Below are positions 720 through 64,000 of a DNA stretch of 64,000 nt, in pieces; within the stretch, counting starts at the first letter, position 1; every line of letters starts with the position of its first letter. The position numbers and the translations under genes are program-made. This DNA comes from Candidatus Multivoradales bacterium. Its GTDB lineage: Bacteria; Acidobacteriota; Thermoanaerobaculia; Multivoradales; J023. Below the pieces are notes generated by a model that was given only the letters and a program-made list of their open reading frames with translations, searched no databases and was not told the origin of the DNA. The DNA is taken from NCBI GenBank assembly GCA_965248925.1, contig CBDFLE010000006.1:1536001-1600000 (forward strand), given 5' to 3'.

Positions 720-824
720 TTCCATTTCCTCTCGGCCAACTTCAGCGTTTGCGTCGGATAGCAGCGGCCAACCATTCTAGCGCAGTCCCAAGCACTGCAC
801 CCGCCGGTGGTACTCTGCCCGCCA

Positions 825-1886: not shown

Positions 1887-2062
1887 CACCAGCGCGGCCC
1901 GCCCCGATCCAGGTCGGCCGCCTCCACGGCTCTCCTGAACGGTCGTTCGGACGGTGTTGAGGCGTTGCCAACCAGGTCGAGCGTCGATATCATCCAGCGG
2001 TTTCCGCTGCCTTGGGCCGCCTTCTCCGGCCACCTGAAAGACACAACTCAAAGGACATCGCC

Positions 2063-3993: not shown

Positions 3994-4091
3994 TGAGAGA
4001 TCTCTGCCCGGCAGCAGAGAAAATGGCCGAGGTTGGCCGGTCGCTGGCCAGCGCCACCGGTTGCGACGCGGCTACCAGAATCCCCTTTCGC

Positions 4092-4928: not shown

Positions 4929-5059
4929 CTTGTACTCTCCTGCTTGAGGCAGCGTTCGGGATCCGGAGCCTATGATAACCTGCCGCGCGCTCGGGGGTCG
5001 CCGACGATGATGCGCAAGCGCTGCTCTTCAGCCACCGAACCGTCCCGGAATTTTTCCAG

Positions 5060-7428: not shown

Positions 7429-7455
7429 GCACCGCTTGGTTGCCAAAGCAGTGGC

Positions 7456-7576
7456 GGCAGAGCGGTGCTAGTTGGCAGAGCAGTGCTAGTTGGCAGAGCA
7501 GTGCTAGTTGGCAGAGCGGTGCTAGTGGCAGAACGGTGCTAGTGGCGGAGCAGTGTTGGCGGTAGAGCAGTGTTGC
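7456..7576. repeat. Intergenic tandem repeat, ~7 copies of a 17-18 bp unit GGCAGAGCRGTGCTAGT(T)
   Basis: Visible directly; no spacers; copies degenerate towards the ends. Confidence 0.9.
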
Positions 7577-7601
7577 GAGTAAACCGCCACACGATACGAA
7601 C

Positions 7602-8003
7602 TCAGCTCTGACGTTTGAGCTTGATGGTGCCGGTATCGAAGGGCTTGCCGTCGTCGAGTTCAGCATGGGTACCGCTGAACTCACCCCCGGTGACCTGACC
7701 CTCGAAGACGAACTTGCGCCGCTTGTACGAGTTGAAGACCTCCCCCTGCAGCGGACCGTCGATCAGGCTGCCCTCAGCGGTGCCTTCCCAGACCTTCGGC
7801 TTACCTTGCCAGTCGAAATAGAAGCTGACCGCCCAAGTATCCTCGCCAGTAGCCTTGAATCGCGCTTCGATGGGTCCCTTGACTCCCTGCGAGGTCCAGT
7901 TGAACTCGCCGGCAAGGATGGTGGCTTCGTCGGCCGCCAAACTCGAGAACGGAGCAATGGTCAGGAACAGAACAGCTGCTACCAAAAGGATACGGGTCTT
8001 CAT
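7602..8003 (-). CDS. Small secreted beta-rich hypothetical protein
   Basis: GGAG RBS; signal peptide MKTRILLVAAVLFLTIAPFSSLA. Confidence 0.8.
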   Translation of the reverse strand: MKTRILLVAAVLFLTIAPFSSLAADEATILAGEFNWTSQGVKGPIEARFKATGEDTWAVSFYFDWQGKPKVWEGTAEGSLIDGPLQGEVFNSYKRRKFVFEGQVTGGEFSGTHAELDDGKPFDTGTIKLKRQS

Positions 8004-8073
8004 AGGGCTCTCCAAGAATCTGCAATGGCTCTTCGCGCGTCTTCTTTGATACGACTGACAACGACCAGGGTTA

Positions 8074-9705
8074 TCAGCCGCCATCGACCCAAGCGCTAAA
8101 CCCGGCAAAGGCGGCACGACGAGCCGCGCCGGGTTTCACTTGGTCGGCCAGCGCCAAGCGTTGATGAGCCAAGCTGAGGAAGGTGCGCAGCGCTTTCAGC
8201 CGACGTTCGACCAGGCTTGGCGGGAACTTCAGCAACAGGTCGGAGAAGGCTTCCAGCGAGGCCAGTTGGCGCTCGGCGTTGCGGCGCTCTTGATTGAGCC
8301 GCCCGCTACTCGACGAGGCGATGTGGGCGCGGATAGCCCGCTCACCAGCAACCCCCGCATCGGCGGCGCTGATCTCGTCGCGGAGCGAGGGATCGGCCGC
8401 CAAGCGTTGGCGCACTTCCACCCCGTGCAAGCGCTCGCTACGCTCCAGAGCTCGTTGACGACCGAGCACCTGACTGGCGTAGAGAAAAACCACTTCCTGA
8501 GCCAACCGCACGGCCGAGCGTGGAAAGGCGCCACGGGTCGACGATTGCCGTCCCAGGGCCTCACCCACCAACGCCTTGCCGACATGGGCTTCGAGTTGCG
8601 CAGCGCTCGCTGGACGGCGGTCGCTATCGCCACGGACATAGGCTTCGATCTCGCTAACATCACCGAGGCCCGCCGAAACCGCCAGGCCAGCGTGGGCGCT
8701 GAGTAGGCTCAGGGCTTGGGGATAGTAGATGGCGAAGATCCTCAGCGGCTTCGCATCGTCCACCAACGCCGTCAACAGCGCACCCGGATCGGCACCGGCC
8801 AAGGCGGCAAGAAAGAGCCGCGGTGGATTGTCGACTACTTGCTGAGCACTCTCGCGGAGAGTCCGCGACAACGGCAGCAGCGGCAGCAGATCCTCTAGTT
8901 CGCCATGGCCGGCCAGCAGGGCCATCTCGTCGAGCCCTTCGTTGATCACTCGGCGCAGGCGACGAGTATCGCCGAAGAGCAACCGCCAGCCAGCCTCACC
9001 AAAAGCCAGCACCTGACGCAGGCTCGCACCGCCGGAAGCGCCGGCCAAGGCCAGTAGGCTCTGCCGTAGATCTTCTGTGTCGAGTTGGCTGGCCGCCTGC
9101 CCAGGCAAGGTGTCGAGGGCCCGGTGTGCCACTTTCGAAGTAGTTTCGCTAGCCAACCGACCGGGGCGACTCGCGGCAGCGACACGTAGAGCGTCGAGGC
9201 CAAAAGCGGCGGGCAACAACGCCAAACGACCCCAGGAATCTACCGCCGTATCGGCCGCCAACTGGCGCCAGCCATAGCCCGACGGCAGCCCTTTGGCGAG
9301 CCACTGCTCACCGGTTAGAGGGTTGCGCGGCGAGCTACCCTCGCCGTCAGCCGGCTCGGGTGCAGCCAGCTCGACACCGTGGGTGGCCAGTTGCGCGGCT
9401 TCCGCGCCGACCCGCGCCGCCTGCTGGTCGAGCTGCTGCGCCAAGCGGCTGGCGAGGCCGGCACCGGGCACCCACCCCTGCAGCGCCCCCGCCGTCACTC
9501 TCGCCGTCTTGGCCCCTACCTGCACTCCAACACACACCGCGCGCGCGGCGACGTTGGAAGACAGGGCCACTGAGCCGGCCAGCGACCGGCCGGCCTGGCC
9601 GAGCTGTCCCAGGCTACTGCTGAGCACCCCTTGGCCAAGCACCACGTCGTCGAGAGAAAGAAAGCTCTGGGCCGCCTTGGTAGCCACTTCTTTGAACAGG
9701 CTCAT
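8074..9705 (-). CDS. Ala/Leu-rich helical hypothetical protein (543 aa)
   Basis: Long ORF with GGAGG RBS, 73 bp downstream of the co-oriented 9779-13018 gene. Confidence 0.75.
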   Translation of the reverse strand: MSLFKEVATKAAQSFLSLDDVVLGQGVLSSSLGQLGQAGRSLAGSVALSSNVAARAVCVGVQVGAKTARVTAGALQGWVPGAGLASRLAQQLDQQAARVGAEAAQLATHGVELAAPEPADGEGSSPRNPLTGEQWLAKGLPSGYGWRQLAADTAVDSWGRLALLPAAFGLDALRVAAASRPGRLASETTSKVAHRALDTLPGQAASQLDTEDLRQSLLALAGASGGASLRQVLAFGEAGWRLLFGDTRRLRRVINEGLDEMALLAGHGELEDLLPLLPLSRTLRESAQQVVDNPPRLFLAALAGADPGALLTALVDDAKPLRIFAIYYPQALSLLSAHAGLAVSAGLGDVSEIEAYVRGDSDRRPASAAQLEAHVGKALVGEALGRQSSTRGAFPRSAVRLAQEVVFLYASQVLGRQRALERSERLHGVEVRQRLAADPSLRDEISAADAGVAGERAIRAHIASSSSGRLNQERRNAERQLASLEAFSDLLLKFPPSLVERRLKALRTFLSLAHQRLALADQVKPGAARRAAFAGFSAWVDGG

Positions 9706-9778
9706 CGTCGTCCTCCACAGATCCTGGCGCGGGCCGCGTCCAGCGCTCCCCCGGCCTGCCGCAAGCTAGTGTCCCACA

Positions 9779-12700
9779 CTAGCTTTCACCACCGAAGGGA
9801 AGGGTAGTATCGATGTCGACCGGCTTGGTATTGACGTTGGAAGTGGTGCCACCGTCGACTTGGATACCGATGAAGGGTGCTTCGGCCGAGGTTGAAATCT
9901 GCACCGAGACTTGGTGCAATTCAGCATCTTCACTCCATTTACCAAAGCCACCGAAAGTCACCGTGTCGGCCTCCCCTGATGCAGCGGTCGAGGTTCGCGA
10001 GTTGGTCGCTCGCAACCAGCTCAAGCGGCTGAGCTTGAATTCGCCGCCAGCGCTATGGTTGACGTACTCGAAAAAGGCCCGCTCCGCCGTCGCCGGATCG
10101 CAGGGGATCGAAAAGCGGTAGGAGAACTTCTCGCCGATCGACGAGGTCTTCTGGATCCAGGCTCGCTCGCCCCCGCCCTTTTTGCCGGTGGGACTGCACA
10201 GCACATTGCGAGCAGTGCCACCGACCATCGCTTCCAAACGCAAGAAGGGGTCGAGACGCGACTCCTCCACCACCACGAAGGGGGGAGTGCCATCGGCCGA
10301 GGGCGAGGGAAAGCGGAAGCCTTGCGGATAGGGAATGAAGACCTCGCCAGCAAAGCCAAACACCGTCTCACCCCCGGGACCGCGGGCAAAGCGCGCCGGC
10401 CCCTGATAGAGGAACGAATCGGCCGGTGTGCAAGGCTCGACCTTACCCAGGTTAACAAAGAGCTGCTGCACCACGAACGAGCGACACAGCAACTCGCCCA
10501 AGATGCGTCCGCTGCGTAGATCTATAGCTCCGATCGCCAGATTGTTGGGATCCAGCGACGACGACAGCTTGGTCTGGTTATAGGTCACGCCGCTAGGAAA
10601 AACCAGCTGCTCGTTGAAACCCACCATGCCGCGAGCGGTGCCCGGAGGCAGATAGGGCAGGGGCTCCGGATCGGGGCTTAACAAGCCGCCAGGCGGCAGG
10701 AAGCTCAGCGCTAGCGGCACGGTGTCCCCTGAACGCGGCCCAAACTGCATCCGCAACCGCCCCATCAAGTGCGAGCGCCCCGTGCCCTCGCCGCCCAACT
10801 CGTCGATATTGAGACCGAAAACGTCGCCAAAACTAGTGTTATGCACCCCGGGCGAAAGCTCCATCACCGTGTTGACCGGAATCTCCGGCAGCTCCGCCGC
10901 GGGCAGCTGCGGCCCGAGATCCTCCTTGGTGGTCAGCACCAGGTGCGGATGCAGCGTCGTTCCACGAGCGACAATCGAGGCACACTGCAGCCGCGGATTG
11001 CCAAAAGGCAAGGGAAAACGGATCGGATCGCCGCCAAATTCCTTGCCCAGGGGCAAGAACAGGTGGCCGGCGAAGCTGAAATCGAGCCGCCCGTCCGAGC
11101 GCTGTTCGAAACGCGCCCAGGTCGAACCGGCATTGGGCGGCCCAGGAAAAATCAACGGCGCCGCCGGCAAATTGGGATTGACCCCAAACAATGTCAGCGT
11201 CGGAGTGTTGAGGAATAAGGTAGCAAAGCGCAGGTTGGTGACCACGCCGGTGTCGAGATTCAGCTCCCCCGAGGACACCAACCCCGGCACGTCCTGAACA
11301 AAATTTAGCTGCGATGGCAGCTTGAACATCTTCGGTGCCGCCAAGGTGCCGTCGTCACCCGCGAGTCCACCCGGCAGAGTGATTTCGAAGCGACTGATAT
11401 GGCTGCTATCGGGCTCGGCAAAGCGAATTCTCACCTCTCCCTGCAAATGGCTGTCGGTCATCGCCAAGCCACCGAAGAAAGTGTTGCCACTGGCGCCAAA
11501 GGTCGGCAGACCTTCCAAGAATGGTTTTTCTTCAGGAAAGTCCACCGCCCGCAAGGCGTCGCCAAAATAGCTGCCGACCTTGTTCAACGACAGCGTCTGC
11601 TCCAACCCCTCGGGCAGCACCAGGGAAACCTCCAGGTGGGGATCGGACAAGCCACCGGCGGGAATACCCACCGCCGGCTCACAGCAGTTGGCCTGCTTCA
11701 CTCCGCCGATATCGAAGGGGGGATCCAGATAAGTGGTCTGGATGGGAAAGATATTCAGCTTGTCCGGCTCGAAAGGCGGATAGAGGTTGATCAGCGACGG
11801 ATCCGGCGGCGGCAGCGGCGGCAGCTCGGCGGCGGTGCGCGGCTGTAGGTATTCGTCGGTGAAAGTCGGCCCGTCGGCGACCTTCGACAGAGTGTTGGCA
11901 TCCGCGGCGGCGATCGCCTCGACATCGACCTCGGCAAACGACTGGTCGTAAGTCTGGTTGAGGAAGCGCAGCAAGTCGTTGGCGATCAACGCGTGGCCGG
12001 TACGACCCGGATAGACCCCGTTGAGCAAGTACAGCCCCCCCAAGTAGGAGGTGCTGAGTTGCCTGCCTCCCACCTCGACGCCGGACTCTGCCAGGTCGGC
12101 CAGGAAGCCGCCCAGATCCCAAACCACCGCGCCATGGGCCTGCGCCTGGCGGCGGATTGCTTGGTTGAGCTTGGCCACTCCGCGCCGCACGCGCTCGGCA
12201 TCGGCGGCGGACAGCACCGAGCCAGAGTTTAGCTGCTCGCCCAGCTGCCGAGCGGTGAACTGGTACCCGAGTTCGATCAAAGCCGGCAGATTGATCAAGT
12301 CTCCTTCGGCCAGGGCGAAGCGACCGCGCAAGAAGGAAGCTTCGGTGCGTATAATATGCGCCGCGCTCTCGAGATCAGAGAAGTAGGCGGTAGCCAAAGG
12401 GTCAGGAATCGTGGCCACTACCAAGCTGCGTTTCTTGGTCGCCAAGGCCGCCAGCAGCCGGCCGTAGTGGTCTTCAAAGCCAGCCAAATCCGCCGCCTTG
12501 GGATCTTGCAGAAAGCCATCCGCTAGAGGTTCGAGAACCTCCTGATAGCCCAACGCCACCAAGGCCAGGGTCGGACGCCGGCTACGGGCATACTCCAATT
12601 GGGTAGGCAGCTTGGCGCCCGCGCGAGTCAGGCTCGGAAGCCCGAGAATCAGGTTGAGAAGGGTTTGTTTGGCGTCTCCACTCTGTACCAGCGGCGCGCT

Positions 12701-13018
12701 TGGACGGCGCCCCAAAGCCTCAGCGAGCCGCAGCCCCGGCACCGACAGATTCGATAGATCGGCCGCATCGCGAGGAAAATCACAGAGTACGGAGGTCTGC
12801 AACAAGTCGGGCACGATCGCCGGCTGCTGGCGGAAACCCACATCGCCCACGCCGGGTGGTTGCAGCAGCGGTTGGGCAAAGGAAAGGCCGAGACGTTCGG
12901 CGACCAGCGCCGGGTAGCTGTAGGCCTGAATGTCCTCGCTGAGGCTGAAATGACCCACTCCGGCGGCCATGCCTTCGCCAAGGACGACGAAGGTTCTGGT
13001 ATCGAGCACCCGTTTCAT
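9779..13018 (-). CDS. SGNH/GDSL-like domain lacking catalytic residues, fused to two repeated beta-rich domains
   Basis: N-terminal ~370 aa align by eye with the lipase at 48437-50047 (SYPAL, QP..PG, NL.VPG, L.T...GGL). GGAGGAG RBS before ATG 13018. Confidence 0.8.
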   Translation of the reverse strand: MKRVLDTRTFVVLGEGMAAGVGHFSLSEDIQAYSYPALVAERLGLSFAQPLLQPPGVGDVGFRQQPAIVPDLLQTSVLCDFPRDAADLSNLSVPGLRLAEALGRRPSAPLVQSGDAKQTLLNLILGLPSLTRAGAKLPTQLEYARSRRPTLALVALGYQEVLEPLADGFLQDPKAADLAGFEDHYGRLLAALATKKRSLVVATIPDPLATAYFSDLESAAHIIRTEASFLRGRFALAEGDLINLPALIELGYQFTARQLGEQLNSGSVLSAADAERVRRGVAKLNQAIRRQAQAHGAVVWDLGGFLADLAESGVEVGGRQLSTSYLGGLYLLNGVYPGRTGHALIANDLLRFLNQTYDQSFAEVDVEAIAAADANTLSKVADGPTFTDEYLQPRTAAELPPLPPPDPSLINLYPPFEPDKLNIFPIQTTYLDPPFDIGGVKQANCCEPAVGIPAGGLSDPHLEVSLVLPEGLEQTLSLNKVGSYFGDALRAVDFPEEKPFLEGLPTFGASGNTFFGGLAMTDSHLQGEVRIRFAEPDSSHISRFEITLPGGLAGDDGTLAAPKMFKLPSQLNFVQDVPGLVSSGELNLDTGVVTNLRFATLFLNTPTLTLFGVNPNLPAAPLIFPGPPNAGSTWARFEQRSDGRLDFSFAGHLFLPLGKEFGGDPIRFPLPFGNPRLQCASIVARGTTLHPHLVLTTKEDLGPQLPAAELPEIPVNTVMELSPGVHNTSFGDVFGLNIDELGGEGTGRSHLMGRLRMQFGPRSGDTVPLALSFLPPGGLLSPDPEPLPYLPPGTARGMVGFNEQLVFPSGVTYNQTKLSSSLDPNNLAIGAIDLRSGRILGELLCRSFVVQQLFVNLGKVEPCTPADSFLYQGPARFARGPGGETVFGFAGEVFIPYPQGFRFPSPSADGTPPFVVVEESRLDPFLRLEAMVGGTARNVLCSPTGKKGGGERAWIQKTSSIGEKFSYRFSIPCDPATAERAFFEYVNHSAGGEFKLSRLSWLRATNSRTSTAASGEADTVTFGGFGKWSEDAELHQVSVQISTSAEAPFIGIQVDGGTTSNVNTKPVDIDTTLPFGGES

Positions 13019-13411
13019 CGGTCTCCTCCCCACGGGTCACGGCAAGGACAGTCGCCCAGCCGACACCTGTCGGATGATCTGAGTGAAGCGAAGCCGCCGC
13101 GCCCGAACCGCGCCACGAATTCGCTCAGCGCCCTGGATACGACTCCAGAACAACCTTACTTCCCGCTGAACCGCGAATAGGAATGACCCGGTTGCGGGAT
13201 CGCGCACCGGAATCACCGGAACCGCCTAGCTTGGGCGGCGATGGGAGAACCAGAAACAACAGAGCAATAGTCAGATAAATCCTATCACGAGCAGGGTGCT
13301 CGAAGAGTCCTAGCACCAAAGTCTGTGCCGCTGGCGGATCTATGGGCGCGCCTGCGGATAGAATTGAGCAAAGATCATCGATCAGCGACCGACTCTCGAG
13401 GACCCTCGACC

Positions 13412-14005
13412 ATGACACTCCATTTGATTCTACTTCTCGCTGCCCTGGCCGCGGCCTCGTCGGCAACCGACACCCCCCACCAACCCGCAGTTCCCGCCGA
13501 CTACGGCCAGCCGCACCCCGAAGCACCTGCCGAGCTACGTCAATTCGCCTTCTTGGTCGGCGCCTGGGATTGCAGCGGCGTGGTCTTGGCCGAAGACGGC
13601 GTTTTCGAGCCCTTTCGCGCCACCATGGTGGGCCGCTACATCCTCGATGGCCTGGCGATTGAGGACGTCTACCGACAGTACGACAGCGGCGGCGAACTCC
13701 AGCACTTCGGCGCCACCTACCGCTCCTACGACACCGACGGCAAGCGCTGGGTAATGAAATTCCACGATGCCCTGGCCTCGACCTGGCTCGACCTCGGCCC
13801 GGTGGACCTCGGTGGGGTCGAGGTCAGCAAAGAGAAGATCAGCTTTCAACACCGCCTCGAACCCGGTGGCCTGATCCGGGTTACTTTCTCGCAGATTTCG
13901 GCCACGGGCTTCGCCTGGCAGGCCGAACTGTCGGGGGACGGTGGCGCCAACTGGCGGCAGGTGATGACTCTGCGAGCGCGGCCAGCCGGATCCGGCGGCG
14001 GCTGA
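13412..14005 (+). CDS. Secreted hypothetical protein (DUF1579-like beta barrel)
   Basis: Signal peptide; LRQFAFLVGAW, RYILDG and SGDGGANW patterns. Confidence 0.7.
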   Translation: MTLHLILLLAALAAASSATDTPHQPAVPADYGQPHPEAPAELRQFAFLVGAWDCSGVVLAEDGVFEPFRATMVGRYILDGLAIEDVYRQYDSGGELQHFGATYRSYDTDGKRWVMKFHDALASTWLDLGPVDLGGVEVSKEKISFQHRLEPGGLIRVTFSQISATGFAWQAELSGDGGANWRQVMTLRARPAGSGGG

Positions 14006-14018
14006 GACGAGGCGCAGG

Positions 14019-15164
14019 TCAACCGCCGAGGGAGACTCGAAACGCTAAGGCAAGTGGCTCGCCCGGGGCGCCAAGCGAGCCCTTGCTCGGCGCGTCAAAT
14101 AGCCGCCGAGGGCTGTTGCCGGCGAGATCTTCAAGCGCCGGGTCAATGCGCACTGCATAGTCACCCGCCGACCAGGGAGAGGAGGGAAGAAACCGCCACC
14201 CGCTTTCGCCGGGCTCGATCTGGACCTCGCCAACCAGCCGTTGGCCAGCAGCGTTCTCGACCCACACCATGCGACTGAGCAACGCATGATCGAGTGGCTC
14301 AGCGAAGTTCAGCACTAGTTCTGCCGCGGAACCGGCTGGCGCTAGCAGCCGCCAATCTTGCGGCCGTGGCGATTGCCGATCGGCCACGACCACCTGAAAG
14401 ACCTTCTCGAAAGGCTCGGTAAGGGCTTGAGACCGGCCGTCCAGCCAGCCCGCCGCTATCACCAGGCGATAGCTCTGGCCGGCTTGCAAGGTGGGGCCAA
14501 GCTCCTCGTGCGGGCCCACCCCACGTTTGATGCGTCCGGGATCGAAGACCAGCGTCAAGCGATCGGTGGCCGGATTCCACAACTCCTGCTGCGGCACCAC
14601 GAAGGGGTTGGTCACTTCCGTACCGGTGGCGTCGAACAACTTGATCTGCCGAGCTGCTTCGCCACGCGACATCGAGGCCGAGAATTGGACATAGAACCTC
14701 AGCTGGTTCTGAGGCAGCCGATCGGTGCTGGGATAGACCGCTACAACCCTCGCCGGTGGACCCGCGAAGGGCGCCGGAAATGCAAAACTGGCCTCGGCCA
14801 AGACCGTGTCGCCGTTCTTCCAGGCCGCGACGTAGGGCTGCTCGGGAACCAGTGGGAAGCGGGGATCGAAACCCACTATTCCGTCGACGACTCGCCAGTC
14901 GCCCAACAACATGGGTTGGTCAGTCGCGGCAGCCGGCAGCACACTGCCGGTGTAAACCGGAAAACGGGCCGCCCAGCCACCTGCATCGGCTCGCCGGGCA
15001 AACTGCCGAACGAGTGCTGGATCGAGGCCGTGCACTTCGATCTGACCGGCACCCGCCGCATCGATCACGAATACCACTTGTGGTGGCGCCGATGGCTGCT
15101 CGGCGGCAACACAGCCGAGGACGCCGATCAACATCACCCACCAGCGATGGCGCAGAATTCTCAT
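14019..15164 (-). CDS. Putative lipoprotein with Ig-like domains
   Basis: Lipobox-like VLGC; YPSTDRLPQNQLRFYVQFSASM; LEDLAGN Ig-like C-terminal motif. Confidence 0.75.
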   Translation of the reverse strand: MRILRHRWWVMLIGVLGCVAAEQPSAPPQVVFVIDAAGAGQIEVHGLDPALVRQFARRADAGGWAARFPVYTGSVLPAAATDQPMLLGDWRVVDGIVGFDPRFPLVPEQPYVAAWKNGDTVLAEASFAFPAPFAGPPARVVAVYPSTDRLPQNQLRFYVQFSASMSRGEAARQIKLFDATGTEVTNPFVVPQQELWNPATDRLTLVFDPGRIKRGVGPHEELGPTLQAGQSYRLVIAAGWLDGRSQALTEPFEKVFQVVVADRQSPRPQDWRLLAPAGSAAELVLNFAEPLDHALLSRMVWVENAAGQRLVGEVQIEPGESGWRFLPSSPWSAGDYAVRIDPALEDLAGNSPRRLFDAPSKGSLGAPGEPLALAFRVSLGG

Positions 15165-52685: not shown

Positions 52686-55328
<2,643 letters not shown>

Positions 55329-55487: not shown

Positions 55488-55808
55488 ATGAAGAGCCAAC
55501 CGATCCAGACCAAGCGACAGCTGACTCAGCGCCTGCACCACCTGGAAAGCCAGCTGCGGGAGCTGGGCGTAAGACGCCTGGCGCTCTTCGGTTCCTTTAT
55601 ACGCGATCAGCAGAACGCCAGCAGTGACGTGGACCTGCTGGTGGAATTCGAACCCTCAGCCAAGAGCTTCGACAATTTCATGGCCATCGCCGAGTTACTC
55701 GAAAACACCCTCCATCGGCGAGTCGAGCTAGTCACCAGGGAGGCCCTCAGTCCGTACCTTGGCCCCCGGATCCTCAGCGAGAGTCAAGATGTCCTACTCG
55801 CCGCGTGA
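55488..55808 (+). CDS. mntA: Minimal nucleotidyltransferase (MNT) antitoxin
   Basis: FGSFIRDQQNASSDVDLLV (GSx10DxD). Confidence 0.88.
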   Translation: MKSQPIQTKRQLTQRLHHLESQLRELGVRRLALFGSFIRDQQNASSDVDLLVEFEPSAKSFDNFMAIAELLENTLHRRVELVTREALSPYLGPRILSESQDVLLAA

Positions 55809-56127
55809 CTACCTGCGACACATGCTCGACGAAGCCGACTACCTCTGCGCACACTCCGCAAACCTCAGTCGCGCAGATTTCCTGACCGATGAGACACTGC
55901 GCCGGGCCTTCGTCCGTTGCCTCGAGATCATCGGCGAGGCGGCGAAGAAGATGCCCTCAGAGTTCGTCAAGACCCATCCAGACGTCGAGTGGCGCGCCAT
56001 GGCAGGAACGCGCGACCGATTGATCCACGGCTACTTCGGAGTTGACTATGAGCTGGTCTGGGACGTGGTGTTGAACAAGATTCCCAAACTCCGAGAGAGA
56101 ATCCGGGAGCTGCTGCAAGCCCGCTAG
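55789..56127 (+). CDS. hepT: HEPN (DUF86) RNase toxin
   Basis: LEIIGEA, RDRLIHGY (Rx4HxY); overlaps the MNT gene. Confidence 0.9.
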   Translation: MSYSPRDYLRHMLDEADYLCAHSANLSRADFLTDETLRRAFVRCLEIIGEAAKKMPSEFVKTHPDVEWRAMAGTRDRLIHGYFGVDYELVWDVVLNKIPKLRERIRELLQAR

Positions 56128-56154
56128 CATCCGCCTCCCGGGAGGTGACTGGCT

Positions 56155-56196
56155 CTTCTTTGGCCGGCACTTCTTTGGCCGGCACTTCTTTGGCCG
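56155..56196. repeat. Tandem repeat, ~2.8 x 15 bp (CTTCTTTGGCCGGCA)
   Basis: Visible directly, at the junction with the clpB duplicate. Confidence 0.85.
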
Positions 56197-56633
56197 AGAA
56201 CGCCTCCGCCAACAGCTTGCTGCGCGAAGAGGTCACCGCCAACGAGATCGCCGACATCGTCTGCAAATGGACCGGCATTCCGGCCACCCGCCTGGTCGAA
56301 GGCGAGCGCGACAAGCTGCTGCACCTCGACGAATTGCAGCAGATCGTCGAGCTGCTGATCCAAGACCTGCGCGGCCGCCTCGCCGAGCGCCACATCGGCC
56401 TCGAGCTCAGCGTCGCGGCCCGCGAGCACATCGCCCGCGAAGCCTACGACCCGGTCTACGGCGCCCGGCCCCTCAAGCGCTTCCTCCAGCACCAGCTGGA
56501 GACCAAGATCGGCCGCGCCCTGATCGCCGGCGAGATCGGCGAAAGAGGCACCATCGAAGTCGGGCTGGCAGACGGCCAGCTGGCGGTCACCCTGCGCAGC
56601 GCTGAAGTCGAAGCAGAGGCAGTCACCGCTTGA
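56192..56633 (+). pseudogene. clpB: Partial, internally deleted duplicate of the clpB 3' region
   Basis: Matches clpB ~54263-54403 joined to 55020-55328; most of NBD2 is missing. An ORF could start at GTG 56145. Confidence 0.85.
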
Positions 56634-56697
56634 TAGGCGGTGGAAATGGGAAGCCCTGCTCTGCAGATCTAGAACAAACACTACCTACGAAACGTCT

Positions 56698-57864
56698 TTA
56701 CCCAGCGATGCTCCCCACCGGCGTCGCGACGACGCCGAAGACCAGCACATGGCCCGGTGGCGATTTTATGAAGATCTTGAATACGTCTTCTTGCTTGATG
56801 ATCGACAGACTCAATGTCGGCCGACGACTCTTGCCTGGCGCTGGCGGAATGGCAAAGAGGGGGGCGATGCCTTCTGCCGCCGCTTGCTGCAGGGCTTTCT
56901 GCTCCTGGTCGCTGAAATCGGCGTGGGACTCCAGCTCGATATCGACCCCGTCTACCAACACGACTCTGGTGACCAGCCGCTGCAGGCTGCCCGAGGGCCC
57001 GAAGGTCTGCTCCCAAGTGGGCTTGATGCCGGCCGGCCACACCGGTTCCCCGTGGGTCTGGAATGCCAGATCCAGGGCCGCTGAGCTGTACCAGGCCGGG
57101 TAGAGCTTGTCGCCCACCTGCTGACGGCTTTGCAGGGGCTGGGCAGCGACTCCGGTTTGATGGTCGAAGACCGCGCTGCCGGTGACCCGCTGGGCAGCCA
57201 GCTTGAGCAGCGCGGACTTGGTGTGGCGATGGGTCTGGGCATCGGAGATGCTGGCCAGACTGCCGGCCAGCCAGGCGGGAAAAACGGGCTTCGCGGTGCC
57301 GAGCCGTGGCGTGCTATCGATCGAGAAACGATAGCTCGGCGCCTGGCTCACCGCGGCGCGGGCGTCGGTGATCGACTTGCTGAAAGCGTAGCTGCCGTGG
57401 GCCTCGATGAACCGGGCTTGCGCTACCGGCACCGTGCTGAAGAGGATCCCACTGTAGGCACTGATCGCTCGCTCGGCCCGCGTCGGATCGGCAATCGTGC
57501 TCCTCGCCCAGCCGCTGAATAGCTCGAGCATGCCACCGGCTGGAATCTCGGGGCCGGACTCGAGGAAGCTCACCCAGCGCGGGTAGTCGTCGCCGACCGC
57601 TTGGCGCCACTCTGTGCCAAACTGCGGAATAATCAGATTGACCACCGCACCATAGCAGTCTGAGAAGCGGCTGAAGGTGGGCTCGTAGTAGTGGCCGCCG
57701 GTGTCGGCGGGGATCACGTCGTAGAAGCTCCACAACTCCCGCGAGCTCACCCCCGGCGGTGTCATCGAGCCAGCGATCAAGAAGCTCAGCGGCGACAGGC
57801 CGAAGGCCTTCACCACCGCGTCAAACCAGACTTGCTGCAGATCCTCGCCCGAACTCAGAGCCAT
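56698..57864 (-). CDS. Paralog of 57973-59187; putative pore-former-fold protein with degenerate hairpins
   Basis: Shared blocks LW..YD.IP, SRFSD.Y..V, YP.WV, GGML.LF..WA, PAW.SSAAL..AFQ, VWP...W..TFG.SG.L.R, SP.G..LV.G; GAGG before ATG 57864. Confidence 0.75.
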   Translation of the reverse strand: MALSSGEDLQQVWFDAVVKAFGLSPLSFLIAGSMTPPGVSSRELWSFYDVIPADTGGHYYEPTFSRFSDCYGAVVNLIIPQFGTEWRQAVGDDYPRWVSFLESGPEIPAGGMLELFSGWARSTIADPTRAERAISAYSGILFSTVPVAQARFIEAHGSYAFSKSITDARAAVSQAPSYRFSIDSTPRLGTAKPVFPAWLAGSLASISDAQTHRHTKSALLKLAAQRVTGSAVFDHQTGVAAQPLQSRQQVGDKLYPAWYSSAALDLAFQTHGEPVWPAGIKPTWEQTFGPSGSLQRLVTRVVLVDGVDIELESHADFSDQEQKALQQAAAEGIAPLFAIPPAPGKSRRPTLSLSIIKQEDVFKIFIKSPPGHVLVFGVVATPVGSIAG

Positions 57865-57972
57865 CGCCAACCTCGCCAGATAGTCCGGATATTCTACGGA
57901 GAAAAGAGCGCGAGCCCGCAATCGCTGGCAGCGATTCCGGGCTCGCCTTCACATCGGCAAAGACACAGAGAT

Positions 57973-59187
57973 TCAGCTGAAGATGTCTTCGATCGGTAGT
58001 ACGTTGGCGCCGAGCACCAGCGGGCTACCCTTGGGGCTGGTGGCGGTCACCACCATCTTGCCGCTGTCGTCGAAGGTCACGTCGTTGGTGAAGCCACCGG
58101 AGACATCGGCGCGGAAGAAGGGCCACACACCGCCACTGGCCTGGCCGGTGATCTTCTGCCGCTCCTCAGTGCTGAAAGTAGCCGTCGACGACATGGTCAT
58201 GGTCATGCCGTCGCCGACCACCAGATTGGTGGCGAAGCGCTTGAGATTGCCGCTGGCACCGAAGGTCGAGTCCCAAGAGGCCGCGCCGTCGACCGGCCAC
58301 ACATCGTTGCCCTTGTTCTGGAAGGCGAAGTTGAGCGCCGCCGAGCTGAACCAGGCGGGGAAGTCCTTGCTACCGACGAAAGTCTTGGTCTGCAGCGGCG
58401 CGGCGGCGAAGGAGATCACGTTGTCAAACTTCACGTCGATGGTGACCTCGCTGCCGCCGAAGGTCGCATTGACCTGGTCGAAGCTGCTGCTGCCACCACC
58501 CCACAGGAAGCGAAAGGCGCCGCTGATCGAGCCCTTGGCCCAGGTGTGCTGAATGCTGCTGCTGGCGGTGCTGCTGTCGAAGGAATATCCCTGGCTCGGC
58601 CCCTGCTTGACCGCCGAGCGCAGGTCGTCGATGCTCTTGTCGTACGCGTAAACTCCGGCCGCACTGATGAAGCGACCCTGGGCCGTGGGCACCACTCCGT
58701 TGAGAATCTGGCTGTAAAGGGTGATTGCTTTCTGTGCCTTGGCGGGATCCTCGATGTTCAGCTGCGCCCAGTTGGTGAACAAGGTCAGCATGCCGCCGCT
58801 GGGTAGGGGATCGCCACTCTGACGAAAACCGTCGAGGTAAGTCACCCAATCGGGGTAGGTGTCGGCCAGAACCTGCTTCCAGGCCAGCGCACCGGAGGGC
58901 AGAATGGTGTTGATCACGCCGCTGTAGTTGTCCGAGAAACGGCTGATCTGCGAAGGCTCGGCCATCTGGGTGACCGACAGGGGCGGGATCGAATCGTAGA
59001 TCGCCCACAGCGCGGTCGACAGGTTGCCCAGCTGGACATTGCTCTGATAGATCTGGAACGTTTGATCTGAGAGATTCAGACCGGTCACCATGGTGTTGTA
59101 CCACTTCTCGGTGAGGGTCTTCATCGCATCTGCGCCGGAGCTTCCGGCGGTCTTGACTTGAGGTTTGGCGTAAGTTGTCGTGCTCAT
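57973..59187 (-). CDS. Hypothetical protein with MACPF/CDC/gasdermin-like beta-pore-former patterns
   Basis: Two Gly/Ser/aromatic amphipathic segments (GSISGAFRFLWGGGSSSF; GQASGGVWPFFRADVSGGF) flanking FGASGNLKRFATNLVVGDG; no signal peptide. The ORF is solid; the fold is inferred. Confidence 0.7.
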   Translation of the reverse strand: MSTTTYAKPQVKTAGSSGADAMKTLTEKWYNTMVTGLNLSDQTFQIYQSNVQLGNLSTALWAIYDSIPPLSVTQMAEPSQISRFSDNYSGVINTILPSGALAWKQVLADTYPDWVTYLDGFRQSGDPLPSGGMLTLFTNWAQLNIEDPAKAQKAITLYSQILNGVVPTAQGRFISAAGVYAYDKSIDDLRSAVKQGPSQGYSFDSSTASSSIQHTWAKGSISGAFRFLWGGGSSSFDQVNATFGGSEVTIDVKFDNVISFAAAPLQTKTFVGSKDFPAWFSSAALNFAFQNKGNDVWPVDGAASWDSTFGASGNLKRFATNLVVGDGMTMTMSSTATFSTEERQKITGQASGGVWPFFRADVSGGFTNDVTFDDSGKMVVTATSPKGSPLVLGANVLPIEDIFS

Positions 59188-59461
59188 TGATTATCCCTTT
59201 CATTGTGACAGCGACTTGATGAAACACCCACATTTCGATCATGCCGGCCGCCGGTTTCAGTTGCGATCGCGGAGACCGTGACTACGAGCCACCATCTTCC
59301 TTGTGCTGTCGCATTAGGTTCTGCCTGGATACTGCTGCGAGATCGCGGGCTATCTCAGGTCAAGATAAGAATCTTTCGACCGACAACGAGAGAGCCCTCT
59401 GGAGCGCTCTCCAACAAGGACTCTGAGGAGCCGACAGAAGGGCAGGAAAAGGGGAGATCGG

Positions 59462-60217
59462 TCAGCGAGCGATCAGCACGCGGAAGGAGAAATGCGCTAC
59501 AGGAGTAGCATCACCGGCTTCTACCCGGACCACGTAGTCGCCAGCAGAGAGCCATGACGAGTGCAGGCTCAGGACCAGGGAATCGAGATAGTTGGGTTCT
59601 AGACCCTGGCGTTGCCATGCCTGCTGCTCGCCGCGCCACAGGGTGACCTGGTAGCTGTCGTATTCGACCAGTCCAAGCTCCAGGGAAAGCACCAGCCACT
59701 CGGGAGCGGCAGACAAGCGCACGATGTGGCTGGGTTCAAGATCACCCAGGGCAGTGCCGCGCTCGGCGCTGAGTGAGAAGAGGGCAGTGTTGATCTGCGG
59801 CTCGTAGACCCGATCCGGGACCGCCGCGGCCAGCGGCTGGTGCTGGCGAAGGGCGGCCAGAGTCGAGTGCGCGTGGTCGAGCTGGCGACCGAGCTGGCGC
59901 TGGTTGCGAACCAGCAGACCTGCGGGCAGCAGGGCAACCAGGAGAAATGCCATGACCAGCAAACCAGCCCGCGGCGAGCGTAGCAGCCGGCCCAACCAGG
60001 CGAGCCGGCCCAAGTGCTGAGCAGTGGCAATGCGGGTCGCGTCTTCGGCCACCGCCCGCTTGAGTCCGCGCTGTAGCTTCTCGGCAACTTCGAGCTGACC
60101 GAGGCAATCCTGGCAATCCAGGTAGTGCTCTTCGAAGCGCCGAGCCTCCCCGGCCGGCAGCTGGTGCATCAGGTAACGATCGATCAGCTGCTGCTCTTCG
60201 ATGTAGCTATGTTCCAT
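59462..60217 (-). CDS. Membrane-spanning zinc anti-sigma factor (ZAS/zf-HC2) with Ig-like C-terminal domain
   Basis: FEEHYLDCQDC (Hx3Cx2C); TM GLLVMAFLLVALLPAGLLV; beta-rich C-terminus ending GDYVVRV. Confidence 0.88.
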   Translation of the reverse strand: MEHSYIEEQQLIDRYLMHQLPAGEARRFEEHYLDCQDCLGQLEVAEKLQRGLKRAVAEDATRIATAQHLGRLAWLGRLLRSPRAGLLVMAFLLVALLPAGLLVRNQRQLGRQLDHAHSTLAALRQHQPLAAAVPDRVYEPQINTALFSLSAERGTALGDLEPSHIVRLSAAPEWLVLSLELGLVEYDSYQVTLWRGEQQAWQRQGLEPNYLDSLVLSLHSSWLSAGDYVVRVEAGDATPVAHFSFRVLIAR

Positions 60218-60247
60218 GATTGCACCGCGCTTTGCAAAGACTACTCA

Positions 60248-60856
60248 TCAGCGTCTCTCCCTGACCAGGCGCCGCTGCTTGTCGGCCCGCTCGAGCAATG
60301 ACTTGTAGCGCTGCCGGGCACGAAACAAAACTCTGTTGAAGTGCAGGCTCGACAGCTCGAGGTCGGCACAGATCCGTTCCTTGGCCTCTTCGACAATGTA
60401 GAAGCGGTAGAGCAGCTGGCGATCACGGTCGGGCTCGAGTTGGTCGATCAGCCGCCGCACCAGGGCGGCTTCTTCATCCAGCAAGACTCGGCTGAGCTGG
60501 TTCGGCGCCGGATCGGCCGGTGGCTCGGCCTGCTCGAGGTCGTCGGTCTTGCGCCGGGTCGTCTTGCGGTAGTCAGCGATGAAGAGATTGCGCGCCGTGC
60601 GATTGAGAAACCCTGCCAGACGCTCGGGATCGGCTAAGCCGGCACCGCGCAGGCGTTCGAGCACGATGCGAAAGGCATCTTGATGGAGATCGTCGGCGAG
60701 GTCCGGATTACCGGTCATGCGGCGCAGCATGAATAGCAAGCCGCGGCTGTAGCGCGCCACCATATCGGTTTCCGCCGCCGGCTCGCCAGCAGCGATTCGA
60801 CGTACCAGAAAGGCGGCGGTCTGAGCTTCGCCCTGGGTGGCTGGATCCTCGCGCAT
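60248..60856 (-). CDS. ECF-type RNA polymerase sigma factor
   Basis: ADDLHQDAF region 2 (...TARNL); region 4 RQLLYRFY...RICADL...VLFRARQR; directly upstream of the anti-sigma. Confidence 0.9.
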   Translation of the reverse strand: MREDPATQGEAQTAAFLVRRIAAGEPAAETDMVARYSRGLLFMLRRMTGNPDLADDLHQDAFRIVLERLRGAGLADPERLAGFLNRTARNLFIADYRKTTRRKTDDLEQAEPPADPAPNQLSRVLLDEEAALVRRLIDQLEPDRDRQLLYRFYIVEEAKERICADLELSSLHFNRVLFRARQRYKSLLERADKQRRLVRERR

Positions 60857-60980
60857 CGGTTGAGGAGAGATTCTAGCCGGAATACCGCGGTGCGACAAGG
60901 ATGGCGAAGGAGCGATCGGTCGATGGCCGCGTTCCCCTGACCGACCGCAGTATTCGGTGCTCAACATAGCCCGTTGCTCT

Positions 60981-61319
60981 TCATTCCTCGTTGGCGTCCC
61001 ACTCTCCAGGTTCTTCCAGGGGATGGACTCCGCCCTTCAGTCCCTGAGCGTGGAGACTGCCATCCGACTCCAGTGAGATAGCCCAATAGGTGTCGACCTG
61101 CTTGAAGTGAAACACCAGCTTGCCAGCCACCAGCTCGAGTTCCGCTTGGCGCCAATCCTCAGCGATACGATCTCTGGACCCCCTCGCCTTGATCTTGAAG
61201 TACTTGCGCTCCGGCTCGGTGACCTCGTAGATCAAGAACTGCTGAGTCATGGGCATACCGACCTTGGGCGATGCTCTGGTGACCTTCCACTTCTTGACGA
61301 ACCCTAGTCCTCCCAACAT
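60981..61319 (-). CDS. Small hypothetical protein (112 aa) between CHAT and sigma
   Basis: GGAG before ATG 61319 (alternative start 61409); beta-rich; ends PGEWDANEE. Confidence 0.65.
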   Translation of the reverse strand: MLGGLGFVKKWKVTRASPKVGMPMTQQFLIYEVTEPERKYFKIKARGSRDRIAEDWRQAELELVAGKLVFHFKQVDTYWAISLESDGSLHAQGLKGGVHPLEEPGEWDANEE

Positions 61320-61505
61320 GCTCGCTCCATTCCTCACTAGCGCCCTCTCGCTCCAGCTCGGCTGAGAAATCGGGCGGGTCTCGGTGGATACGCTCAGTCC
61401 ATAAGTCATCGCGATTTCCTCGCAGGTCCGACGAGCTCGTCATTGAACGCCGTCTTTCACTGTCTACCTGCTGCCAATCGCGGTTCTATCTCAGTATTTC
61501 TCCGC

Positions 61506-64000
61506 TCATTGCCATTCTCCTTGCAGCACAAAGGCACCCCAGTAGTAGGGATCGGCCCAGCGCCGCTGACTGAGAATCGAGATCTGGGCCGCCCGCAGCG
61601 CCGCCGCCGGGGTCAGACCGTCGACCGACATGGAGCGGTAGAAGTGGGCCATCAGCTCTGCCGTGGCCCGATCCTCCACCCGCCACAGACTTGCCACCAC
61701 CCGCGGCACGCCGGCATACATGAAGCCGCGGGTGAGGCCGACCAAACCCTCGCCCAGAATCTCCCGTCCAAGAGCGGTTTGGCAGCCGCTTAGAACCACC
61801 AAGTCGGCAGCGAGCTGCAGGTCGTAGATATCGCGCAAACGCAGGAAGCCCTCGCGCGCCTTGCCCTGCTGATCGAACAACGACAGCACCAGGCCCGACA
61901 GCTGCGGTGTCTCGGCGTGGATCAGCCCATGGGTGGCGAAATGGACGATTCTGTAGTGGCGCAGCTCACCGCCGAGCACCAGTTGGCGATTGGCGGCGAA
62001 GTCGAGCGCCATCATCACCTCAGCGGGCGCTCCCAAGGAGGCTATCGCCGTGGCCTCGCGACGGCTAGAAGGCAGGCGATCAAAGGACAGCTGGCGAAGT
62101 CCTGCCGCTCCGGCCGGCGAGCCCGACCGGACCCGAGCGGCGCCCAGTCTGGGATCGCGCGCGTCGAAAACCGGATCGGCCAGCACCGCCGCCCAGCGCG
62201 GAGCCGGCAGGCGGCTAGCCGTGGCGGCCCGCTGGATGCTCAAGGCCGAAGCCGAAGGCAAGTGGACGACTTCATGCTCCAGCACCAGGGGCATTGGCCG
62301 GCCGGCGGATTCGGTCGCACCGCGCCGTGCGGGCGCCGGCAAGGTAGCGAAGGGTAGGTAGTGCAGCACGCCGTCGGCAACCACCACCAAACGGTGTCCC
62401 AACAAACGCTCGGCAACCGGCCCCAGGAGCAGGTCACTGAGCTTTCTGGCAGCCTGCCGTTGCTCGCCACTGGCCCGCGGATCGAAGGTAGCGAGCTGCT
62501 GTACGACCGGGCGAACCACCTGCTCTAACTCCGCGCTGCCGGGCAGCTCGTGGACTTCGAAGCTGCTAGCGGTCAGCACCCATAGAAAGCTCCGCCGGGT
62601 ACCCAAGGTGTATTCCAGCAGCAGCGTATCGTCGGTCAGAAGATCTTGGGTGGCCGCCAGATCGAGGGGTCGCGGGTAGGCCAGCGCTTCGTAGCGCGGA
62701 CTCTGCCGGCGAATCTCCGCCTCGAGAGAGTCGAGATCGGCAACCACTTCGTAGAGCTCCAGCTGGGCCTCTTCTTCTGCCCGTCCCTGACTCAGCAAGG
62801 TCAGCCGGCGACTGGCCTTGGCGTCAAGCCTCCGCTGCAGCAGTTGACGGCGACGGCGCAGGTCGGGATCCAGGGGCCGGCCCAGATTGGTGCCGGCAGC
62901 CGACAGCATGTCGAGCAGACTGCGAGCGCGAGCTTGTTCAGCCACCTGCCGCGCCAGCTGGGCGAATTCGCCTCCCGGCTGAGGCGAGTGCAACTCCATC
63001 AACAGGTCGATTTCGAGCTCGTAAGCCTGCCTTTGCGAGGCGAGAAACGTGGCCCTTAGATCGGCCGCGCTCACCCTTGTGCGCAGGGATTCGACGCGAG
63101 CCAGAGCTTGCTCCACATCGCGCCTCGCTGAGTGCAACTGACCCAGTTGACGCTGGGCTTCGGCGAGCACGGTGAGACTCTCGATTTCACCATAGGGATC
63201 GCTCATCCCCAAGCGCAGGCTGAGTGCTCGGCGGAGGCTGAATTGGGCCTGCCGCGGCTCTCCCAAGGCTAGCTGCGCCGCGCCGCGAGAGTGCAGAGCA
63301 GTGGCTGCTTCGCGGCGGTCCTCGATGCTGGCCAATACCGCCAAGACTTGATCGAACAGACCGAGTGCAGCGCGCGGATCACCCGCCGCCACCAGACTCT
63401 GGCCCATGCGATTCAGCGTGCTCGCTTCGCCGCGCCGATCACCCACCGCCCGGCGCAAAGCCAATGACTGACTGAAGAGCTGCTGCGCGTGGCGATGCTC
63501 GGCCAAACTCGACCGTACCTGGCCGAGCACACTGAGGGTGATCGACTCACCCCGCCGATCGCCCACCTGGCGCCGCAAGGCCAAAGCCTGGCCCAAGAAG
63601 GTCAAGGCCCGGCGCGGCTCACCCAGGCTGAAGTAGGCAAAGCCGATGTTGTGCAGAGCCGACCCTTGACGACCCGTGTCGCCGAGCTCGCGGCGCACTG
63701 CGAGAGCCCCCAGATAGTGATCGAGAGCCGCTTGCATCTCACCGCCCCGGCGATAGACCACGGCGATGTTGTTGAGGCTCTGGGCTTCTCCCTTCCGGTC
63801 CCCGGTCGCTTGCCGCAAGGCCAATGCCCGTTCGTGGTGTTCGAGCGCCAGCTGCGGCTCTCCCAGGTTGTTGTAGGCGCTGCCCAGATTACTGAGCACC
63901 AGAGCCTCGTGCCGAAATTCCCCCTGCTCACGGAGCAGCTGAAGTACCTCCTGATAGCACTCCAAGGCGTCACGCAAGCGGCCTTCCGAGTGAGATCGCA
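61506..64000 (-). CDS. TPR-CHAT caspase-like protease, 5' end beyond the window
   Basis: Tandem ~40-aa TPRs; ARARSLLDML; catalytic VHFATHG and VVLSGCQT; ASLWRV; PYYWGAF; frame open to the window edge. Confidence 0.95.
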   Translation of the reverse strand, partial: RSHSEGRLRDALECYQEVLQLLREQGEFRHEALVLSNLGSAYNNLGEPQLALEHHERALALRQATGDRKGEAQSLNNIAVVYRRGGEMQAALDHYLGALAVRRELGDTGRQGSALHNIGFAYFSLGEPRRALTFLGQALALRRQVGDRRGESITLSVLGQVRSSLAEHRHAQQLFSQSLALRRAVGDRRGEASTLNRMGQSLVAAGDPRAALGLFDQVLAVLASIEDRREAATALHSRGAAQLALGEPRQAQFSLRRALSLRLGMSDPYGEIESLTVLAEAQRQLGQLHSARRDVEQALARVESLRTRVSAADLRATFLASQRQAYELEIDLLMELHSPQPGGEFAQLARQVAEQARARSLLDMLSAAGTNLGRPLDPDLRRRRQLLQRRLDAKASRRLTLLSQGRAEEEAQLELYEVVADLDSLEAEIRRQSPRYEALAYPRPLDLAATQDLLTDDTLLLEYTLGTRRSFLWVLTASSFEVHELPGSAELEQVVRPVVQQLATFDPRASGEQRQAARKLSDLLLGPVAERLLGHRLVVVADGVLHYLPFATLPAPARRGATESAGRPMPLVLEHEVVHLPSASALSIQRAATASRLPAPRWAAVLADPVFDARDPRLGAARVRSGSPAGAAGLRQLSFDRLPSSRREATAIASLGAPAEVMMALDFAANRQLVLGGELRHYRIVHFATHGLIHAETPQLSGLVLSLFDQQGKAREGFLRLRDIYDLQLAADLVVLSGCQTALGREILGEGLVGLTRGFMYAGVPRVVASLWRVEDRATAELMAHFYRSMSVDGLTPAAALRAAQISILSQRRWADPYYWGAFVLQGEWQ

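Follow-up and report, generated by a model that had tools for sequence, protein, structure and literature searches.

A putative split, DdvA-like sigma switch beside a paralogous gene pair with a predicted gasdermin-like fold in an acidobacterial genome

Does a protease-gated transcriptional switch control the pair of genes that lies directly behind it, or do the two simply share a stretch of chromosome? The question is raised by six consecutive minus-strand genes in the genome of a Candidatus Multivoradales bacterium (phylum Acidobacteriota; assembly GCA_965248925.1), at one end of a 64,000-nucleotide (nt) stretch of contig CBDFLE010000006.1 that is referred to here as the window (G000:C6:1536001-1600000). 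The locus consists of two units: a switch, made up of a TPR-CHAT protease, a small protein, a sigma factor with extracytoplasmic function (ECF) and an anti-sigma factor of the zinc-binding (ZAS) type, and a pair of genes termed A and B. The switch is apparently an unpublished, split variant of the DdvA/DdvS type, and the pair comes from an unnamed family for which a gasdermin-like fold is predicted. An earlier reading of this DNA, made without database searches (the sequence-only reading), had proposed that the CHAT protease cleaves the anti-sigma factor and possibly the effectors, and that the sigma factor induces a pore. Our own reading of the whole, held tentatively and at a little less than an even chance, is an extracytoplasmic protease-gated sigma switch with A and B as its likely local output.

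All six minus-strand open reading frames (ORFs) are found in the ORF list of the window where the sequence-only reading had placed them, and the gene content and intact CHAT His/Cys dyad that it described were borne out by Pfam, NCBIfam and motif matches. In full, the protease gene spans G000:C6:1597506-1600826 (61506-64826 in window numbering, with 826 nt outside) and encodes 1106 amino acids (aa). The match to Pfam CHAT (PF12770) scores 239.5 bits (E 6.9e-71), the cut-off being 24, and takes in positions 2-289 of the 289-position profile; many Pfam TPR families match as well. The dyad motifs HFATHG and LSGC are present in the translation and have equivalents in two homologs used throughout for comparison, one from a paralogous switch in the same genome (L004) and one from a metagenome contig (L010). 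Recovering the N-terminus beyond the window edge, which had been suggested as a way of looking for a signal peptide, revealed the sole hydrophobic segment of the protein at residues 8-32, preceded by arginines (hydropathy score, threshold 1.6). The layout is thus an export-type signal, a region of about 100 aa, the TPRs and the CHAT domain. A single N-terminal hydrophobic segment is present in all three CHAT proteins compared (window, L004 and L010). Because of this segment and the arginines before it, we infer from hydropathy that the protease is exported and active outside the cytoplasm, where it would face the extracytoplasmic C-terminal part of the anti-sigma factor.

The remaining switch proteins are recognized with varying strength. 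The sigma factor matches NCBIfam TIGR02937 at 44.4 bits (cut-off 42.9) and Pfam Sigma70_r2 at 33.9 bits (cut-off 24, E 2.7e-8); its region 4 has no Pfam match at E<=0.1, and NCBIfam alignments to whole-ECF models cover residues 43-232. The anti-sigma factor reaches 22.8 bits with Pfam zf-HC2, just over the cut-off of 22.2, carries the zinc-binding motif as HYLDCQDC, and has one hydrophobic segment, the membrane helix of Table 1. The small protein has no Pfam match, and its core and C-terminal GxWxA[D/N] tail are conserved in all three switch copies aligned. The same hydropathy measure finds no hydrophobic segment in the sigma factor, in A or B, or in the small protein of either the window or L010; that of L004 barely reaches the threshold (1.60, residues 21-39). 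The genome also contains three matches to Peptidase_M50, a universal family, and these are candidates for an RseP-type site-2 protease.

The closest known system is DdvA/DdvS, and the sequence-only reading had chosen well in naming it as the analogue of the CHAT, sigma and anti-sigma part. According to the available text of the DdvA reports, DdvA combines a ZAS domain, a membrane helix and a periplasmic TPR-CHAT region in one protein that gates the ECF sigma factor DdvS (PMC11506125), and self-cleavage by CHAT followed by RseP has been proposed as the release mechanism, so far unproven (PMC11506125; PMC6061681). The two systems have in common an ECF sigma factor, a zinc-type anti-sigma domain, one membrane helix, an extracytoplasmic TPR-CHAT region (here predicted by hydropathy) and the His/Cys dyad; also alike, as far as that text goes, is the proposed logic of CHAT as a site-1 protease ahead of RseP, with neighbouring conflict genes as the output. 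They differ in that the anti-sigma factor (59462-60217) and TPR-CHAT (from 61506) are separate genes here and the fusion is absent, that a conserved small protein is added, that the DdvS promoter pattern GTAA-N16-CGT is missing, and that the cargo is a gasdermin-like pair rather than the CBASS (cyclic-oligonucleotide-based antiphage signalling system) and CRISPR genes described for DdvS in the text available. By analogy, then, the window switch reads as a split form of the DdvA/DdvS principle and not as a member of that system. Literature on ECF factors, CHAT domains and anti-sigma factors yielded only the DdvA papers and the Csx29 paper, and the split form was not found there. With phmmer against PDB chains, the 49 hits of CHAT were TPR proteins without exception, the sigma factor matched SigE, and the anti-sigma factor weakly matched RsrA; no CHAT, DdvA or DdvS chain was matched at E<=0.001, the presence of a DdvA-DdvS entry among the chains being unconfirmed. 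ECF54-type sigma factors are likewise linked genetically to CHAT protease genes, and subtilase or carboxypeptidase genes also occur in their context, but the group is described, in the accessible part of the source, as lacking an anti-sigma factor (PMC8999054), whereas a ZAS anti-sigma factor is present here.

On these grounds a sequence of events can be proposed. The TPR-CHAT protease would be exported across the membrane, and a signal bound by its TPRs or its N-terminal region would activate the His/Cys site. Acting as a site-1 protease, CHAT would cut the extracytoplasmic part of the single-pass anti-sigma factor, and an RseP-type site-2 protease encoded in the genome would complete the release of the sigma factor. 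Once freed, the sigma factor would transcribe its targets, of which A and B would be the most likely local output in this lineage. The expressed proteins would then target a membrane, perhaps joined in a heteromer, and presumably by forming pores. For the proposal that CHAT cleaves the anti-sigma factor, both the predicted topology and the DdvA precedent fit.

What kind of proteins are A and B? They are paralogs, as the sequence-only reading had held (37% identity, E 4e-79), and neither has a match in Pfam (E<=0.1), NCBIfam or PADLOC (E<=1). A profile of the A/B family found no PDB sequence at E<=10, and nothing turned up in the phage records or viral contigs searched. Among 401 genomes of the phylum, a search with A found only the genome of the window itself. 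Pfam Gasdermin is absent from the same number of phylum genomes but is equally silent in 14 control genomes, so this result is uninformative. Relatives of A form a sizeable family: a word-indexed search collected 25 proteins including the query, all unnamed or 'hypothetical' and the nearest from Thermoanaerobaculia-like metagenome bins, and an exhaustive search collected 335 representatives (at 50% identity) with E<=0.001, 103 of them with E<=1e-30. Members from named organisms come from Bacillus altitudinis and its relatives and from Aeromonas veronii, and tblastn located copies on large replicons of Photobacterium and Sinorhizobium. Some members carry about 100 extra residues at the C-terminus (P0035, P0047, P0050, P0149) or at the N-terminus (P0023, P0025, P0037); these extensions have no Pfam match and could be targeting domains.

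The sequence-only reading had described the two paralogs as having beta-pore-former-like patterns. A resemblance to pore formers is supported, though the patterns can now be replaced as its basis by matches to the gasdermin fold. The AlphaFold model of A (predicted local distance difference test 87.3, predicted template modelling score 0.82) contains a helical insert at about residues 97-176. Foldseek placed bacterial gasdermins at the top (E 5.5e-3 to 1.4e-2), followed by pleurotolysin B, with nothing at E<=0.001; in a second structure comparison gasdermins or RCD-1 filled the top six rows, followed by MACPF proteins. Two models built independently, one containing the helical insert and one lacking it, both had the gasdermin superfamily as top match, with two aligners and over nearly the whole chain. 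The models show no Ig-like domain of the cholesterol-dependent cytolysin (CDC) type, and the pneumolysin match spans chain residues 55-340 only. Since the scores of A lie in the middling range of the aligner and have no sequence-level support, we speak of a gasdermin-like fold, which we regard as fairly probable for the A/B family, and not of membership in the gasdermin family.

Bacterial gasdermins (PDB 7n51, 7n50, 7n52, 8sl0) are the best structural matches of A and its short relative; as in their systems, a caspase-type protease gene lies in the cluster, and A and B have no export signal, as would suit a protein acting inside the cell. There are also differences. At 404 aa, A is longer than these gasdermins (about 240-270 aa) and includes a helical insert of about 80 aa. 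It matches neither Pfam Gasdermin (PF04598) nor PADLOC models, shows no separate C-terminal inhibitory peptide and comes paired with a divergent paralog. Its relatives are found without proteases, and the protease of the window has a predicted export signal. Pyroptolysins are described, in the text available, as a gasdermin-like N-domain joined to a CDC-type Ig-like domain in proteins of 325-400 aa that are mostly encoded by solitary genes (bioRxiv 10.64898/2026.10.05.756811). They share with A a gasdermin fold (predicted for A), a length of about 325-400 aa, an origin in environmental bacteria and, mostly, the lack of an adjacent protease. Each also has a conserved Trp-Pro motif, the one in A lying within GGxWPFF. 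The present models lack the Ig-like C-terminal domain, however, and their gasdermin alignment reaches the C-terminus. No pyroptolysin chain was among the fold-search matches, and the A/B family is provisionally treated as distinct from the pyroptolysins. RCD-1 of Neurospora crassa (PDB 8jyz) is a gasdermin-like variant pair, but it is fungal, its two forms are alleles and not tandem paralogs, and no sequence similarity to A or B was found. Within the pair, B keeps the fold-defining residues and has a divergent middle segment, Ala/Arg-rich in place of the Ser/Gly/Trp-rich segment conserved in A-type proteins. Because B has lost that segment, it may be a regulatory partner or a brake.

The pairing itself is conserved: A is followed by B in all five loci that could be assessed (the window, the contig pair L005/L006 of a related metagenome-assembled genome (MAG), and contigs L007, L008 and L009). 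Linkage to the switch recurs in one other lineage. Metagenome contig L010 carries a sigma factor, two anti-sigma copies, a small protein and CHAT in the 10 kb upstream of an A ortholog, but arranged differently: the ortholog, cut by the contig end, follows a LuxR-type response regulator and a divergent CHAT with small protein, and the sigma and anti-sigma genes are found further upstream. The L010 switch is closer to that of the window than to the in-genome paralog L004 (47% versus 42% identity for CHAT). Over the 114 residues that can be compared, A of the window and A of L010 are not mutual closest relatives, so the linkage either is old or came about twice. None of the window, L005, L007, L008 and L009 has a counterpart of the LuxR-type regulator, which in L010 is the gene immediately ahead of A. 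The two L010 anti-sigma genes (1385-2185 and 3824-4570) are 92% identical to each other and are separated by a gene for a 524-aa protein with weak cytochrome-c-like matches, an arrangement that suggests recent duplication within the switch.

Copies of the switch elsewhere show what else it can accompany. The order CHAT, small protein, sigma, anti-sigma recurs in L004 and in a genome of the same order (L029). The L004 proteins are 51% (sigma) and 31-34% (anti-sigma) identical to those of the window, and a TerC membrane protein follows that switch. L029 (G176:C1:434001-454000; 385-15110, minus strand) contains the four-gene switch, then an ORF of 132 aa, then an RHS-type toxin of 2877 aa with DUF6443 and the RHS-associated core TIGR03696 (62.9 bits). 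At a second locus in that genome CHAT comes last, after sigma, anti-sigma, a 271-aa protein and a CBM96 protein. In another genome of the phylum the sigma and anti-sigma genes precede two M16 peptidases, and in yet another CHAT, sigma and anti-sigma are convergent with a tRNA synthetase. The switch thus appears as a sensor cassette with changing cargo, and toxin-like cargo recurs, because the related switch in the same-order genome precedes the RHS-type toxin. The anti-sigma type of the window is the rarer element, found in 4 of 301 sampled genomes of the phylum, this one included. Within the present genome, the sigma gene is upstream of the CHAT domain on the same strand at 12 of the 14 sigma loci that lie near CHAT, CHAT coming first only in the window copy and L004. 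In L004, three head-to-tail copies of a 16-nt unit (about 6660-6710) span the annotated start of the paralogous sigma gene.

A number of results weigh against a link between the switch and the pair. The sequence-only reading had itself cautioned that CHAT, sigma and anti-sigma triads may be frequent, and rightly so: of the 31 CHAT matches in the genome, 16 have a Sigma70_r2 match no more than 7 kb away, and 14 of the 53 sigma matches take part. Since such pairs are common, some adjacencies will arise without function. Effectors and switch do occur together in the window and L010; in the related MAG, however, there is no CHAT, sigma or anti-sigma gene within 7.4 kb upstream of A (eight anti-sigma matches lie elsewhere), and there is no switch in the 879 nt upstream of A in L007. 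The switch is thus near A in two of four loci with usable upstream sequence. The more distant A homologs of Photobacterium and Sinorhizobium sit among unrelated genes, with no protease close by, and five other switches of this type (L004, L028, L029, L030, L031) have no A or B homolog. Promoter comparison was no more encouraging. It took in 11 upstream regions from the window, L004, L008 and L010, belonging to the genes for A, the sigma factor, the small protein and CHAT, and looked for pairs of a 4-mer and a 3-mer spaced by 16-18 nt; the best pair occurred in five of the regions, and 100 shuffles gave maxima of 4-6. The DdvS-type pattern GTAA-N15-17-CGT is found neither on the coding strand of 56600-64000, nor upstream of CHAT, nor in L004, L010 or L029, and G[GT]AAC-N15-17-CGT, of the GGAAC type, is absent from the cluster, its sole hit lying inside L029. 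The four sequencing runs found to contain the locus all come from one study, with no RNA run among them. A likeness picked out by eye between the regions upstream of the sigma gene and A (AAC, 16 nt, CG, with a common GATCG) was dropped as post hoc. The earlier proposal that the sigma factor induces A and B thus keeps the rearranged linkage on one contig (L010) in its favour and has no promoter motif to show for it; functional coupling of switch and pair is a possibility that we place distinctly short of even.

The upstream regions of A do offer one promoter of a different kind. A strong sigma-54 promoter match (TGGCAY, 5 nt, YTGCA) lies 78-81 nt before A in L005 (about 7290), L007 (about 800) and L009 (about 300), where no switch is found in the upstream sequence at hand (376 nt in the case of L009); these contigs, which are short, showed no activator gene. 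The promoter is absent before A in the window, in L010 and in L008, where the 450 nt available upstream are too short to show a switch.

These promoters bear on the plainest alternative, that switch and pair are neighbours only: the switch would regulate itself or distant genes, and A and B would form an independent operon with its own promoter, adjacent by ancestral gene order. The 274-nt spacer with a hairpin after the anti-sigma gene would suit such a division, as would the sigma-54 promoter of relatives without a nearby switch, the failure to find a sigma-type promoter before A, and the other genes (TerC, M16 peptidases, RHS toxin, CBM96 protein, convergent tRNA synthetase) that adjoin the five related switches. 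It is set against this that the linkage recurs, rearranged, in L010 with A genes that are not mutual closest relatives, that the sigma-54 promoter is missing in both switch-bearing loci (and in the 450 nt upstream of A in L008), and that chance alone would, by our own estimate, be unlikely to place one of 14 such sigma loci in 8 Mb immediately beside the pair; on balance we judge mere neighbourhood somewhat unlikely. The opposite extreme is a direct one, in which TPR-CHAT cuts A, B or both in the cytoplasm to give a pore, the sigma and anti-sigma factors being an extra substrate as in type III-E Csx29/Csx30. A gasdermin-like protein does adjoin a caspase-type protease with an intact dyad, the pairing that defines bacterial gasdermin systems as far as the accessible text of that work goes (bioRxiv 10.1101/2021.06.07.447441). 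However, all three CHAT homologs have the export-type segment and neither A nor B has one, so that the protease, with its predicted place outside the cytoplasm, is unlikely to cleave A or B; moreover, the gasdermin alignment runs to the last residues of both A and P0119, leaving no separate C-terminal inhibitory piece visible, and the Photobacterium and Sinorhizobium members, like the pair in the related MAG, have no protease nearby. The effector half of the earlier cleavage proposal is accordingly disfavoured, and this route seems very unlikely to us. Sigma-driven expression of A and B is the better model of the two, though still unproven.

Two further alternatives concern the pair itself. 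A and B might be released toxins that act on other organisms from outside in the manner of pyroptolysins, and not suicide pores, with the switch sensing competitors or prey. Pyroptolysins, in their available description, offer a precedent for use of the gasdermin fold by toxins of environmental bacteria whose genes mostly stand alone (bioRxiv 10.64898/2026.10.05.756811), distant members of the A family are solitary too, the unannotated terminal extensions of some relatives could target the protein, and a related switch precedes an RHS toxin. But A and B are without a signal peptide, no secretion genes lie close to them, the models lack the CDC-type Ig-like domain, and the function of B is left unexplained; we hold release to be improbable. 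Alternatively, A and B might not be pore formers at all, their likeness to gasdermins reflecting a common arrangement of a twisted sheet and helices. Two independent models and two aligners nonetheless put the same superfamily on top over nearly the whole chain, with MACPF and CDC proteins next, and the nearest named language-model clusters, taken as a lead only, are thiol-activated cytolysin and MACPF at 0.86; we consider a chance likeness rather unlikely. The protease-gated switch with A and B as local output is the reading that we carry forward.

The features of the locus are collected in Table 1. With full ORFs, the intergenic gaps are 51, 274, 30, 13 and 96 nt, in place of the range of 30-275 bp given by the sequence-only reading. 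Comparison with orthologs indicates that B probably starts at the ATG and not at the upstream TTG, and the true start of the sigma gene is probably about 37 codons into its ORF, behind the sigma-70-like promoter match.

Table 1. Features of the switch and gene pair, in window coordinates
Feature	Position	Strand	Description
Gene B	56698..57864	-	388 aa from ATG 57864; open frame extends to TTG 57921; paralog of A
Gene A	57973..59187	-	404 aa; rare unnamed family
Spacer upstream of A	59188..59461		274 nt; imperfect hairpin 3' of anti-sigma stop codon
Anti-sigma factor	59462..60217	-	251 aa; N-terminal zinc-binding domain (HxxxCxxC), predicted membrane helix at residues 78-106, predicted extracytoplasmic C-terminal part of about 145 aa
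ECF sigma factor	60248..60967	-	ORF of 239 aa; likely true start near 60856
Sigma-70-like promoter match	60870..60898	-	TTGTCG, 17-nt spacer, TAGAAT; ahead of probable sigma start; consensus match alone
Small protein	60981..61409	-	ORF of 142 aa, with about 90 aa from 61253 forming a conserved core; no export signal
TPR-CHAT protease, C-terminal 830 aa	61506..64000	-	Gene crosses window edge

The flanks of the locus are ordinary, with dnaJ, clpB and a small toxin-antitoxin pair on one side and a short-chain dehydrogenase on the other. The toxin-antitoxin pair, of the nucleotidyltransferase/HepT-like type (55488-55808 and 55759-56127), comes directly after clpB (52686-55328) and is followed by a remnant of the clpB 3' end, with 90% identity between 56285-56584 and 54980-55279 and 92% between 56229-56332 and 54300-54403. 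The region 55488-56633 has the look of an insertion by which the clpB end was either duplicated or displaced. About 10 kb past the window end there is a second, unrelated ECF-type sigma gene with a DUF6596 C-terminal extension (L003 9921-11249; G000:C6:1606921-1608249).

The split form of the switch has a practical consequence: with protease and substrate as two proteins, the proposed site-1 cleavage would become directly testable in vitro. Regulator and ligand are candidate roles for the conserved small protein. A bolder version of the model, which we think unlikely to hold in full, would make A and B a two-component, gasdermin-fold pore system that dispenses with a cytoplasmic protease, an exported caspase-like protease instead reading a signal from outside and bringing about loss of the membrane anti-sigma factor and transcription by the ECF sigma factor, with the same kind of switch driving other toxins, such as RHS, in related bacteria. 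If true, the caspase-to-gasdermin link of pyroptosis would here be rewired through transcription across a membrane. A and B in any case represent a sizeable unnamed family, spread over Acidobacteriota-like MAGs, Bacillus, Aeromonas, Photobacterium and Sinorhizobium. If its predicted fold is confirmed, the range of the gasdermin fold in bacteria would extend past protease-activated gasdermins and pyroptolysins, and would come to include a gasdermin-like protein tied to envelope signalling instead of to a cytoplasmic protease.

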